A DNA stretch of 64,000 nt from IMG/VR virus record IMGVR_UViG_2706795801_000001, positions 69,825-133,824 of that record; one strand, given 5' to 3'. How positions within the stretch are numbered: the first letter of the stretch is position 1; every line of letters starts with the position of its first letter. Shown here one piece after another: positions 20,066-48,988 of the stretch. The translations under genes were made by a program, and so were the position numbers. Origin of the DNA: a virus. Its lineage: Duplodnaviria > Caudoviricetes. The notes below the pieces were generated by a model. That model was not told the origin of the DNA. It worked only from the letters and a program-made list of their open reading frames with translations, and did no database searches.

Positions 20066-23000
20066 ATGTCAGAAGAAATCACCAAGTATGTAGTGGAGGC
20101 AGAATTTGATTCCGCTAAAGCTACAAAAAAGTTGGATGAGTTTAATAAGAAATTAACGTCTTATTCCAAAGCTCAGAACAACTTTAGAAAGAATAAAATG
20201 GGTATGCAGAGGGTTCTAGATAATACCAGAAAGCATAAGATGCTAACGGATGTTGTTAAGACGCCTCAGATAGCTAAATTGAAACCTCCAACATCACCAG
20301 TTAATAGATTAGAAACACTATCAGGTAAAGAGAAGGTACTACCTAACCTATATAAGTATAGTGAGGCTTCTTTAAAACGACAAAGTGAATACTTAGATAA
20401 GATTAAAGATAAGAAGGTGAAACTATCTTATGTTAATAATCTAAATAAACAAGAGCGAAAGGTCAAGTTAGATAACAAAATCCCCTCAAGACAGAAGGTA
20501 GCTGTTAGTGTCAAAACTAAAACCCCTACCAAACGTTTAGAGTCTAAGACTTCCAAAGTAAAACCTGTACCAACCTTAGACAGAAAAATAAGGATACTTA
20601 GTAAGGTAAAAGATAGTAGGGTTAACGAGAAAGACCAACCCAAACCTAGTAGATTACAAACACTAAAATCTAAAGAGAAACTATACCCAAACCTATATAA
20701 GTATAGTGAAGATTCTCTTAAGCGGCAAAGTGAATACCTAGCTAAGTTAAAAGATAAGAAGGTTAAATTAGATTTCATCGACAATCTTGACAAGGTAAAG
20801 AAGAGATTAAAATCCTTAAATAGACAAAAGACTAGGGAAGTGCCTGATAAGATTAGTAAAGTAGTGGGTTCAGATAAGAAACCTTTACAGAAAATCAATA
20901 CTATCAAGGAAAAGGTGGTCAAAGTAGGTAAATCCCCTAAACAGCCTATGCTAAATGCCCATCACAAGGAACGTGAGAAGTATTTAAATAAAGAGTACAA
21001 GAACAAGGTTAACAGGGAAAGGAGTTTAAAGTCTGCACACATCTTGGCTATCAAAGAAAACATTAAGTTTGATAGGAAAGCAGCAGAAGCTAAACGAAGC
21101 GAAGCAAGTAAACCAGATGGTATGGATACTCATCTTAAACAACGTGAGAAGTATTTAGATAAACAATACAAGAAACAGTTAAGTCGAACTAAAGAGTTAA
21201 AAGCGGCACATGTAGCTGCTATTAAACAGAATATTAAGTTTGACAGACAACGGAAGATGGCTGCTGCTAAGGTTAAACAACCTGCTATTATGAAACCTGC
21301 TGATGCTCATGTGAAAGCTAGAGAGGCTAGTATAGTTCAAGCTAATAGAAAGGAAACTCGTAGGAAGTCTAATCTAGGAGTCGCCAAAACATCATTTGAT
21401 AGGTCTGACTTAAACCTAACTCAATATACTGACGCAAGACAACTTGCAGCACAAGCAGCACTGAGGGAGTCTATAGCGCAAGCTAAGACTGCTGATGAAG
21501 TCAAGATGATAGTTGCAACAGAACATAAACGCCTAAGAGTAATGAAGCAGAATGAGCGCTCTATGGGTAAGCAGAACTACCTGATGCAACGTATGAACGC
21601 ATCCAGTAAACAGTTTACAAGTAACATGTTCTCTGCATTCGCCATAGCTGGTGCTGGTGCTGGTATTACTAGAATAGGACAAGACTTCGAAGCAGTAAAT
21701 AACACCATGTTGGCAGTAAGTACTAATACGCAAGAAGCAGGATCTAACTTTAAGTTTGTTAGAGATGAAGCTTATAGGTTAGGACTAGGACTTGCAAACA
21801 GTGGTAAGAACTTTGCTAAGATGTTATCTGCCAGAGGTAATATGAGCCTAGAGGATACAAAGAAAGCCTTCACAGGTATTTCAGAAATGTCTACATTGTT
21901 GGGGTTAAGTGCAGAAGAAAGTACAAGAGCTAAAGTTTGTGGCTCCTTTTAATAGTAATGTTAAATGTAAAATCTTTTTAATTGCTGGGACACCCACTTT
22001 ATGGTGGACAATCAGCAGGGACGTTAACGTAAGTTAACACCTTCAGAGACTAACCCGTTAGGGTGTAGATTCTACTTAGAATCGAAAATAAGAAATCCTT
22101 TTAGGATTAAGATATAGTCCACAGACAAACGCTTTACAACAAATAAATCATTGTTTGGCTTCATAGAAATGTGATGAATAATTAAATTTATGAATTCGGT
22201 GGATCTCCTAAATGGAAGTAGGACAATACCGAGCGAAGCCTCGAAAGAGGAACGTGTAAAGACTAACTCGTAAGAGTGTAGGGGACGATACTATATCCTC
22301 GAAGCGTAAATAACCTGAACATTAAGTTGAAGGTTAAGATATAGTCTGAACTTCTATAGTAATATAGAGCGTATAATACGGAGTAAGTCATTGATTTACT
22401 TAACAATTTTGGATGAGTAAAGGAGTTGTATCGGCTAAATCCTTGGCCTTTTAACTAGCGATAGTTATCAATAATTCATTTAATTGCTGGAACCTCTCAT
22501 ATGAGACAATCAGCAGGGAAGACTACTCGTAGTAACCTCCAACGACCAACCGTTATCGGTGTAGATTCTAAGTAGAGTCGAAACAGTGAAAACCTCTAAG
22601 GAGGTTATGATATGGTCTAGCCCTATAGTGATATAGGTTATATCTAAAGACTTTGATATAGTGACTCTTAACGTAAGTCATTGATTTAACTAGAGGAATT
22701 AAAGCTTCAAATGGGTAAACTTTGCCCAGTATAAAATTATTTAATTGCGAGAAGCCTTAATGCTTGTGACAGATGATGTATTTATGGTATCATTGTTGCA
22801 GGTGAGATGGTAATTCGCAGGGAAGACCCACCACCTCAAAAGAGGAGTGTGTTGATATTATGAAAGCTATAGAAGAATTTCCAAATTACTTTATTGATGA
22901 AAGCGGTAATGTGTTTAATAGTAGAGGGGTTCCAATTAAATCCCAATTAAATATAGATGGTTATAGGGTAGTAAACTTATATTCAAACAAAAAATATTAT

Positions 23001-24449
23001 CATAGACGATGTGCTAGGATGGTAGGTTTGACACATCTAAAAGACACATATGAAGAAGGTTATGTAATAAATCATAAAGATTTTGACAGAACCAACGACC
23101 AAATATCAAATCTTGAATGGATAACATCCCTAGAAAATAACTTGCATTCCATAGAAGGACAACCCCACCTACACACAAGGGGATCTAAATATGACGAAGA
23201 TTTTATAAGAGGTGTTTGCCAGATGATCCAAGATAATAAAAACAATAAGTATATCATGGAACAAACCAAGGTAACAAAAGATACACTATTACACTTACGT
23301 TGTGGTGCCACTTGGACTTGGATATCTAAAGATTATATATTGACTCCTTCAAAAAGAGAATGGTGAGTAACCTCCAGAGACTAACCCTAACGGGTGTAGG
23401 CACGAGTGTGTCGAAATGGTAATCACATTTATGTGAAGATATAGTCCGATACCCAATGAAAATTGGGATATAACTCTTAACGTAAGTTATTGAAAACATT
23501 AAAGGAAGTTTTGCCCAACGCCATACAAATTATGGCAAAATCCGCCCAAGACGCAGGTCTAACATTAGATGGTACTGTAAAATCTATGATGGACTTACAG
23601 CAAAAAGGTGGTTTAATATCTGAAAAGGTATTACCTCATTTTGCTAAAAATATGTCAGAGGCTGCTCGTGCTAACGGTGGTTTAGATAAGGCTTTATTAT
23701 CTAACCGTGTTGCAATGAACAGGTTCATGTTCTCTATACAAGAAGCTGCTGATATTGTATTCAAGTCTGGATTCGCTTCTGGGCTGACAGAGTTGTTCAA
23801 TACAATGGCTGAATCTATTGTAGACTTAAAACCCTTATGGGAATCTTTAGGCACAATAATGGGTTCATTGTTTAGGTTAATTGCAGACGGTGTTAAATAT
23901 ATTACTCCACCACTTATTTCTATGGGTAATGTACTAAAATCTATTACCTCAGCTTTAGGTGACAACTACTCTTGGTTACTATTGACCTCATCTGGTGCAA
24001 TGGTACTATATAGAACCATAGATAAATTAGGTGGTCTTAAGTTCTTTGCAATGAGAACACTGCCAATGGTTGGTTTATTAGTCATGGCGTTAGACGCAAT
24101 CAAGCAAGTAGCTTTTTGGGCAGAAGAGTTAGACAATTTATTATTTTCTAGAAATAAGATAGGTGTATTATATGATCCTAGGACTGGTGTGAATACAGAC
24201 TCAGTTATAGATGAATTAATACCACTATTGACCTCTATCAGTTCAATAAAAAATCAAGTCAACGCTGTGTCTTCTGGTAATATGATGGGTGGTGCTAAAG
24301 GTTTAGAGGCATTATTTAATGCAAATAATAAACCTGTTACGGTGAAAGGTAACGTATATATTGGAGAGGAAAAGGTTGGTGACATAATGGCTAACAACTC
24401 TGCAATTAAAGATACTATCCAAGCTGAAATAAAGAAAATACAAAACTAA
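20066..24449 (+). CDS. Tape measure protein, spliced: join(20066..21931,22125..22144,22412..22436,22693..22716,23505..24449), 959 aa
   Basis: Between chaperone and baseplate genes. Joined exons give LGLSAEESTRA-TNALQQM-MSKGVVSA-EELKLQMG-EVLPNAIQIMA, the conserved tape-measure motif; 2880 nt in frame. Confidence 0.9.
21932..22124 (+). ncRNA. Group I intron 1 (IA2-like), 193 nt, no P9
   Basis: P1 GAGCU/GGCUC with U.G; P10 GUUUGU/ACAAAC; P AAUUGCUGG, Q AAUCAGCAGG, R CAGAGACUAA, S AAGAUAUAGUCC; P7.1/P7.2 hairpins; ends in G. Confidence 0.85.
22145..22411 (+). ncRNA. Group I intron 2 (IA2-like), 267 nt
   Basis: P1 CAAAU/GUUUG; P10 UCAUU/GAUGA; P4 UCGGU/ACCGA; R AAAGACUAA; S AAGAUAUAGUCU; P9 with GUAA loop; terminal G at 22411. 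Confidence 0.9.
22437..22692 (+). ncRNA. Group I intron 3 (IA2-like), 256 nt; 3' end at A22692 (alternative G22695)
   Basis: P1 GGCU/GGCC; P10 UCCUU/GAGGA; P AAUUGCUGG, Q AAUCAGCAGG; compensated P7 GACCA/UGGUC; P9 with GUGA loop. Confidence 0.85.
22717..23504 (+). mobile_element. Group I intron 4 (IA2-like), 788 nt, HNH ORF in the P6 loop
   Basis: P1 GGGU/GCCC; P10 AAACUUU/GAAGUUU; P AAUUGCGAG, Q AAUUCGCAGG; R CAGAGACUAA and S AAGAUAUAGUCC lie downstream of the ORF; P9 with GAAA loop; terminal G at 23504. Confidence 0.9.
22860..23366 (+). CDS. Intron-encoded HNH homing endonuclease (I-HmuI/NUMOD4-like)
   Basis: FPNYFID.SG.V, DGY..VNL, INHKDFDRTNDQISNLEWIT..EN..H; GAGGAG RBS. Confidence 0.9.
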   Translation: MKAIEEFPNYFIDESGNVFNSRGVPIKSQLNIDGYRVVNLYSNKKYYHRRCARMVGLTHLKDTYEEGYVINHKDFDRTNDQISNLEWITSLENNLHSIEGQPHLHTRGSKYDEDFIRGVCQMIQDNKNNKYIMEQTKVTKDTLLHLRCGATWTWISKDYILTPSKREW

Positions 24450-48481: not shown

Positions 48482-48988
48482 CTATTTACCTAGTTTCATA
48501 CATTGTTGTAGCATCTTAACATTACGTTTTACTTTCTGCAAGTAATATTCACCACGTTTATAATTATTACCTGCATTGTATGCCATCACCATTTTCTCCC
48601 AATCACCTTTGTGGACTTTCTTAAAATGTTTTAATACATTAAGTGCATATTTAGCAGCCACCTCATCATTATAGGTCATGTTGAATGCTAGAAGGTAACC
48701 CAGTATTACATTATCCACACCAGCAATAGATTTCATTGTATTAATATTTATTGCATATAAACCGAAGTCTTTACTACGAGTATTAACACGTTGCACACCA
48801 AGAGAACTCTCAGTCATTGCAATAGCTGCTAGTGTAAGCCCTAAATCGCTCCCTGAGCCACGATTATATGATAACCTCGCATTATGTTTCTGGTCATCAT
48901 TAAGCTGCTTAAACACGTTACAGTTATTCTCAGAGGCATATAATGGTGCAACTAAAGATGTTGCAAGTAATAGTGTAATTAATTTCAT
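48482..48988 (-). CDS. Lytic transglycosylase (SLT-like) with signal peptide; candidate endolysin
   Basis: AIAMTESS catalytic Glu, DFGLY.IN, AYNAG; cleavable signal peptide ending LYA. Confidence 0.8.
   Translation of the reverse strand: MKLITLLLATSLVAPLYASENNCNVFKQLNDDQKHNARLSYNRGSGSDLGLTLAAIAMTESSLGVQRVNTRSKDFGLYAININTMKSIAGVDNVILGYLLAFNMTYNDEVAAKYALNVLKHFKKVHKGDWEKMVMAYNAGNNYKRGEYYLQKVKRNVKMLQQCMKLGK

Follow-up and report, generated by a model that had tools for sequence, protein, structure and literature searches.

The closest described counterpart of the locus considered here is found in the Vibrio phage ICP1, in which the homologous gene contains three introns and four exons, as demonstrated by RNA-seq, reverse transcription PCR and Sanger sequencing, and in which intron content and HNH content vary between isolates with the junctions kept (Barth et al. 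2023, PMC10448857). Tape measure genes are also interrupted in prophages of the Bacillus cereus group, where the group I introns TMP-IVS1, IVS2 and IVS3a/b belong to subgroups IA2 and IA1, and where adaptation of P1 and P10 has brought unlike introns to a shared site and related introns to separate sites (Tourasse and Kolsto 2008, PMC2504315). Very short exons have been described elsewhere, with a 23-nucleotide (nt) exon among the three introns of orf142 in phage Twort and a 34-nt exon between two introns in Coxiella (PMC10136302). Here we describe the tape measure gene in the right-hand 64 kilobases (kb) of the 133,824-base-pair (bp) virus record IMGVR_UViG_2706795801_000001, a record that bears terminal repeats; this 64-kb stretch is referred to as the window. 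Four distinct, mobile group I introns very probably interrupt the gene; each has its own insertion site, and all four sites fall in a 69-base coding segment midway through the conserved TMP_3 domain.

The resemblance to ICP1 is close, this being a related myovirus with tandem group I introns, tiny exons and an intronic HNH-3 gene in the same TMP_3 hotspot. If the insertion sites are numbered after the four introns of the window (sites 1 to 4), with site 3b denoting a further position within exon 4, then the ICP1 introns are placed by sequence at sites 3, 3b and 4, so that ICP1 has three introns and four exons against four and five in the window, where sites 1 and 2 are occupied and site 3b is empty. 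The first ICP1 intron and intron 3 of the window are members of one family with a common P7 variant, and the third ICP1 intron, which is known to splice, occupies the same site as window intron 4 and has a near-identical guide sequence. The other systems are more distant. The three sites in the Bacillus prophages, which are temperate phages of Gram-positive hosts, are spread over a gene of more than 1200 codons, whereas those of the window fall within 69 nt. Twort orf142 is a different gene, in which introns 2 and 3 closely resemble one another and exon skipping has been seen, whereas the introns of the window have distinct guides and are only 36–53% identical pairwise, and are therefore four distinct elements and not duplicates. 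The Coxiella introns lie in a bacterial rRNA gene and are unrelated to those of the window, which interrupt a phage protein gene. The array is dense but not unprecedented, and it is not new in kind; the original prediction for this DNA, made from the sequence alone, gave an incomplete background in citing Twort orf142 and introns that lie mostly in DNA-metabolism genes, as tape measure introns had been published for the Bacillus prophages (PMC2504315) and for ICP1 (PMC10448857).

According to the arrangement that we propose (Table 1), each intron would fold on the transcript and excise itself by the usual two transesterifications, using its own guide to pair with the last 4–5 bases of the upstream exon (P1, with a U.G at the cut) and the first 5–7 bases of the downstream exon (P10). 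Each micro-exon would then play two parts, as 3' exon to the intron before it and as 5' exon to the intron after it, with different bases used for each, and the resulting single mRNA would encode a tape measure protein of about 959 amino acids. An in-frame stop lies within 6–8 codons of each intron start, so that ribosomes should halt before reaching the ribozyme core; early stop codons of this kind have also been noted in other phage introns (PMC2504315).

Table 1. Proposed components of the interrupted tape measure gene, in window coordinates
Feature	Position	Strand	Length and content	Basis or score
Tape measure exon 1	20066..21931	+	622 codons; terminal U pairs with G in P1 of intron 1	98% identity to phage 1/40; phrog_28779 positions 115-305 end exactly on last residue
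Intron 1	21932..22124	+	193 nt; group I, IA-like with P7.1/P7.2; ends in G	Rfam 58.2 bits
Micro-exon 2	22125..22144	+	20 nt; TNALQQ and 2 bases of a Met codon	Contiguous in intron-less F88 and P0002
Intron 2	22145..22411	+	267 nt; group I; ends in G	Rfam 78.4 bits; model R1 100 bits
Micro-exon 3	22412..22436	+	25 nt; base 3 of the Met codon and MSKGVVSA	Contiguous in F88 and P0002
Intron 3	22437..22692	+	256 nt; group I; P7 GACCA/UGGUC; last base A if exon 4 starts at 22693	Rfam 69.2 bits
Micro-exon 4	22693..22716	+	24 nt; EELKLQMG; 22696-22716 (21 nt) if intron 3 ends at G22695	
Intron 4	22717..23504	+	788 nt; group I; predicted homing-endonuclease reading frame in P6a loop; ends in G	
Predicted HNH homing endonuclease gene	22860..23366	+	168 amino acids; within intron 4	
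Tape measure exon 5	23505..24449	+	314 codons and stop	phrog_28779 resumes at position 329 with residue 1

The exon junctions are established, at the level of sequence, by comparison with relatives that are intron-less or that carry introns at other positions. When the five exons are joined they give 959 codons with no internal stop, and across the junctions the product can be aligned gap-free with the tape measure protein of Vibrio phage F88, whose gene has no intron. In F88, eugene 12A10, RYC, F98, 1.063.O and K354, which represent six Vibrio phage groups, the matches to exon 1 and exon 5 are separated by 69 nt, the sum of the three micro-exons (20+25+24). The same spacing is evident in phrog_28779, where the profile positions between the two large exons, 306-328, provide 23 positions for the 23 micro-exon codons. 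P0002, a metagenomic homologue free of introns (69% identity), has all 23 of the micro-exon residues unchanged, with the same exon 5 start directly after them. Further resolution comes from Shewanella phage 1/40, an isolate from Baltic Sea ice that is 99% identical to the window across the tape measure region. Its identity with the window stops at 22435 and restarts at 23505, and the codons flanking sites 3 and 4 are contiguous; introns 3 and 4 are absent from this phage, which fixes their junctions, the exact 3' end of intron 3 apart. Phage 1/40 instead has another intron, with a gene for a 235-amino-acid HNH protein, after the Leu codon of EEL (site 3b), and the six base differences between the two phages in exon 4 are all synonymous in the proposed frame. 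The assignment of the gene as a tape measure gene rests on PF20155 (TMP_3), on phrog_28779 and on its position downstream of sheath, tube and chaperone genes. A Pfam search with the two halves taken singly gave no match, and the intron-less relative F88 was therefore used, in which PF20155 spans the insertion spot with 77 bits. The original reading of three micro-exons that restore a tape measure motif in a 959-residue frame thus agrees with the open frame, with the gap-free F88 alignment and with the residues of P0002.

Each of the four introns has a recognisable group I core. Using the Rfam group I model RF00028, for which the cut-off is a gathering score of 50 bits, matches above this threshold were found at 21921-22129 (58.2 bits), 22139-22369 (78.4 bits) and 22426-22638 (69.2 bits), while a fourth match at 23280-23468 was sub-threshold (27.1 bits when the region was searched, 30.3 bits for the whole genome) and comprises the 3' half of intron 4, spanning P7, P7.1, P7.2, P3', P8, P7' and P9. 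The 5' half was recovered with a covariance model, R1, that was built on seven 5' intron halves taken from other phages; to avoid circularity, the window and site 4 contributed none. R1 gave exactly four matches on both strands of the 64-kb window, one of which (22686-22846; 28.1 bits, E 0.008) is the 5' half of intron 4. The four cores first read from the bare sequence are thus all recovered, although the expected four hits with a group I model amount to three above the Rfam cut-off and a fourth below it that covers a 3' half only. The pairings cited in that reading, GACCA/UGGUC for P7 of intron 3 and UCGGU/ACCGA for P4 of intron 2, are both present. All three Rfam alignments have two hairpins, P7.1 and P7.2, inserted after the R element and before the 3' strand of P3, and these hairpins show compensatory changes in joint folds; by this extra-hairpin criterion the introns belong to subgroup IA (IA2-like). 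The P6a loop, which is a usual location for endonuclease genes borne by introns, holds in intron 4 an open reading frame (ORF) that matches PF13392 HNH_3 (E 1.3e-7) and the phrog_59 HNH endonuclease family (E 9e-27). Its 168-residue product is a predicted homing endonuclease whose activity we infer from these matches, and an intact orthologue of the gene is found in a related uncultured phage, L013 (IMGVR_UViG_3300033997_000035; 128 kb, 77% protein identity).

Every intron has the splice-site pairings expected of it, as originally proposed. P1 has 5, 5, 4 and 5 bp in introns 1 to 4 and ends each time in a U.G at the 5' splice site; the P10 pairing to the downstream exon has 6, 5, 5 and 7 bp. 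The bases engaged in P10 and in P1 are separate within each micro-exon, exon 2 for example pairing with intron 1 through its P10 bases and with intron 2 through its P1 bases. Introns 1, 2 and 4 end in G, and intron 3 in A under the junction that is supported by frame and P10, the closest G with which the frame is preserved being 22695.

The compensatory changes that had been claimed for the cores are abundant when the window is compared with L013, which has orthologues of all four introns with 74–88% identity. Intron 1 (78% identical) has compensatory changes in P5, P6, P7.1 and P7.2, intron 2 (88.5%) has changes such as C-G to A-U in P4, intron 3 (85.7%) has eight compensatory pairs, and such changes are also present in intron 4. 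In joint folds of the two sequences there are 25 double compensatory pairs, nine one-sided changes that keep the pair and no broken pair. A structure predicted from the window only gave 22 double compensatory changes, against 3–11 when the partners were slid; these single-sequence minimum free energy folds hold many wrong pairs (50 broken in L013) and served only as an unbiased control. The guide of intron 1 has followed its target: exon 2 opens with two bases that are not the same in the window and in L013, and the P10 guide has changed correspondingly. Within the four members of the site-3 intron family, 13 of 42 pairs show compensatory changes, one of them in P7. Taken together these comparisons demonstrate selection on RNA pairing.

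Some further features of the introns were observed. Intron 1 is very small, with 193 nt in the window (21932-22124) and 181 nt in L013 (4951-5131), and still scores 58 bits with Rfam and shows compensatory changes. The 3' tails of introns 2, 3 and 4 (22372-22411, 22653-22692 and 23466-23504) are alike: a hairpin around ACGUAAGU comes first, then CAUUGA, then a run rich in A and U. Since the introns at site 3 of ICP1 and of the uncultured phage L022 have similar tails, this seems to be an RNA element conserved in this intron group rather than a DNA site bound by protein. In intron 2, 32 nt (22338-22369, covering the 3' strand of P7 together with P9) have an exact match in unannotated DNA of the Aeromonas phages phiA009 and phiA019, which suggests that these carry related introns.

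Several points weigh against the proposed arrangement. That splicing actually takes place in the window phage is deduced from the comparisons given above; intron 4 as one unit fails the Rfam cut-off; intron 1 is without P9, its splice site coming only four bases after the 3' strand of P7; and intron 3 has A22692 where related site-3 introns carry the terminal G, and the second step of its splicing may proceed slowly or rely on a different G. The low score of intron 4 can be accounted for, as a 507-nt ORF occupies P6a and brings the intron below threshold as a single Rfam unit, and since two ICP1 introns with experimentally shown splicing also score below threshold (38.9 and 28.9 bits), it is no argument against intron 4.

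The end of intron 3 needs closer consideration. The start of exon 4 at 22693 in the original prediction agrees with the frame and with a P10 of 5 bp, but it requires a non-canonical terminal A, which was not mentioned there. The site-3 introns of ICP1 and L022 end in a G that aligns with A22692, at the same 15-nt spacing from the conserved hairpin, and all 30 homologues that read through the site keep two residues before Leu/Met (EEL in 29 and QEM in one). P10 would have 5 bp with an exon 4 start at 22693, 3 bp at 22694 and 2 bp at 22696. The G-binding G-C pair of P7 in intron 3 is unchanged, and a terminal A should therefore slow exon ligation. On balance we regard A22692 as the probable terminal base at the junction of exons 3 and 4, if by no great measure, the remaining probability beyond G22695 belonging to mixtures or to something else.

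The alternative that survives best, though we consider it unlikely, is that intron 3 ends at G22695, giving a 21-nt exon 4 (22696-22716) and a protein of 958 residues that reads SAELK and not SAEELK. Such an end would accord with the near universality of a terminal G in group I introns and with the intact G-binding pair in P7, and would preserve the frame at the cost of one Glu; it would also reduce P10 from 5 to 2 bp, disregard the column in which ICP1 and L022 place their terminal G at equal hairpin spacing, and remove one of the two residues that every read-through homologue keeps. Nor is a terminal G indispensable, as a natural self-splicing intron without one is reported for Coxiella 23S rRNA. 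The base that replaces G in that intron is reportedly A. Two other explanations of the A were rejected. A sequencing error, in which a G was lost from a GG run, is ruled out by the same bases in L013 and in a third assembly, L025, from another sample, and G22693 is ruled out as a productive terminal base by a stop after two codons. Searches for further relatives of intron 3 returned only generic group I core matches in the phage collection (e.g. phiKZ-like and Bacillus phages), and pattern scans of viral and metagenome contigs returned the L013 lineage only.

A more radical possibility is that splicing has been lost in one or more of the introns, intron 3 being the likeliest, and that the tape measure function is provided by two polypeptides, as a gene in pieces. 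The terminal A, the stop that follows from use of G22693 and the two ORFs in the public annotation would all be compatible with this, but we think it very improbable, as the micro-exons keep exactly the conserved 23 codons and differ from relatives by synonymous changes, compensatory changes are found in all four introns, intron 3 included, and the A itself is kept in three assemblies of two lineages that are about 15% apart in intron sequence. The phage is moreover a plaque-forming isolate. Self-splicing of all four introns from one transcript remains our preferred explanation.

The occupancy of the sites among relatives bears on why so many introns have gathered here. Sites 1, 2, 3 and 4 are occupied in the window; L013 has these four and a fifth, phage 1/40 has sites 1, 2 and 3b occupied, ICP1 and L022 have sites 3, 3b and 4, HNL01 has sites 2, 3b and 4, 11895-B1 has sites 2 and 4, and F88, helene, 1.121.O, eugene, RYC and most metagenomic homologues have none. 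The relatives together use six insertion sites or more in a stretch of about 90 coding bases, and 13 of the 35 protein clusters with the motif stop at one of the sites. The fifth group I intron of L013 (L013:6491-6750; Rfam 67.9 bits) lies 20 nt into the equivalent of the window's exon 5, where the window is without an intron, and gives this phage five introns and four micro-exons of 20, 25, 24 and 20 nt. By sequence reading, the exon between the introns at sites 3 and 3b is only 8 nt in ICP1 (L017:11631-11638, minus strand) and in L022 (L022:5032-5039).

The pile-up is best read as a homing hotspot, as the original prediction had suggested, because the turnover of introns, their lack of relationship and the presence of endonuclease genes fit homing into conserved essential DNA. 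Endonucleases such as the HNH enzyme of intron 4 would find their targets where the DNA of an essential gene is most conserved, and introns would be gained and lost through gene conversion. The further suggestion that the array is a post-transcriptional checkpoint, tying tail assembly to four splicing events, fares poorly and is in our view highly unlikely: that all four introns need removal to make an essential protein is a general fact, no result here supports regulation, and the four introns are unrelated beyond their common core (one bearing a homing endonuclease gene) with a content that is unconserved, from three introns at partly different sites in phage 1/40, with its 99% identical exons, to five in L013, three in ICP1, two in 11895-B1 and none in many others. 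Such variation between 99%-identical sisters, with many relatives intron-less, is the pattern of mobile selfish elements.

In the wider genome, the window phage is most likely the sister of Shewanella phage 1/40, i.e. phage 1/4, as judged from their sequence identity. The gene order is sheath, tube, chaperone, a 628-amino-acid ORF (20066-21952), about 1.5 kb with the 168-amino-acid HNH ORF, and a 319-amino-acid ORF (23490-24449). The record of phage 1/40 contains a 628-amino-acid tape measure protein and a separate hypothetical protein, to which exon 5 is 99.7% identical, with the micro-exons unannotated. PHROG families 30206 and 34878 likewise appear to be built from misannotated halves of the interrupted gene, namely a 628-amino-acid 'tape measure' that runs into intron 1 and a 316-amino-acid protein of 'unknown function'; the expectation that ORF callers would miss the micro-exons is borne out by both. 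Terminase introns have been mentioned for phages 1/4 and 1/40 (PMC8541194), a literature search found no paper describing introns in their tape measure gene, and the host–phage pair has been used in laboratory work (PMC9963407). Outside the window the same genome has group I matches at G000:C1:15993-16243 (minus strand, 63.9 bits) and 48623-48780 (plus strand, 37.3 bits).

The annotation of a cultured model phage is thereby corrected, with two 'genes' and an 'intergenic' stretch of 1.6 kb becoming a single 959-codon gene with four ribozymes and a predicted homing endonuclease. If the transcript is spliced as proposed, the tryptic peptides that span the junctions would be ATNALQQMMSK and LQMGEVLPNAIQIMAK. 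We put at about even the chance that intron 3 (22437-22692), a natural group I intron whose G-binding pair is intact, nevertheless splices with A as its 3'-terminal base, its homologues in ICP1 and L022 having kept G. To our knowledge it would then be the second natural case of a terminal A, after Cbu.L1917 of Coxiella, and the first in a phage protein-coding gene, and its close G-ended relatives would provide the comparison needed to test whether a terminal A serves exon ligation; as a low-copy protein, the tape measure may tolerate a slow second step. More generally, the locus adds a well-resolved case in which the conserved core of tape measure genes appears as a favoured landing site for homing elements, and offers a natural system in which to ask how tandem group I introns avoid exon skipping.

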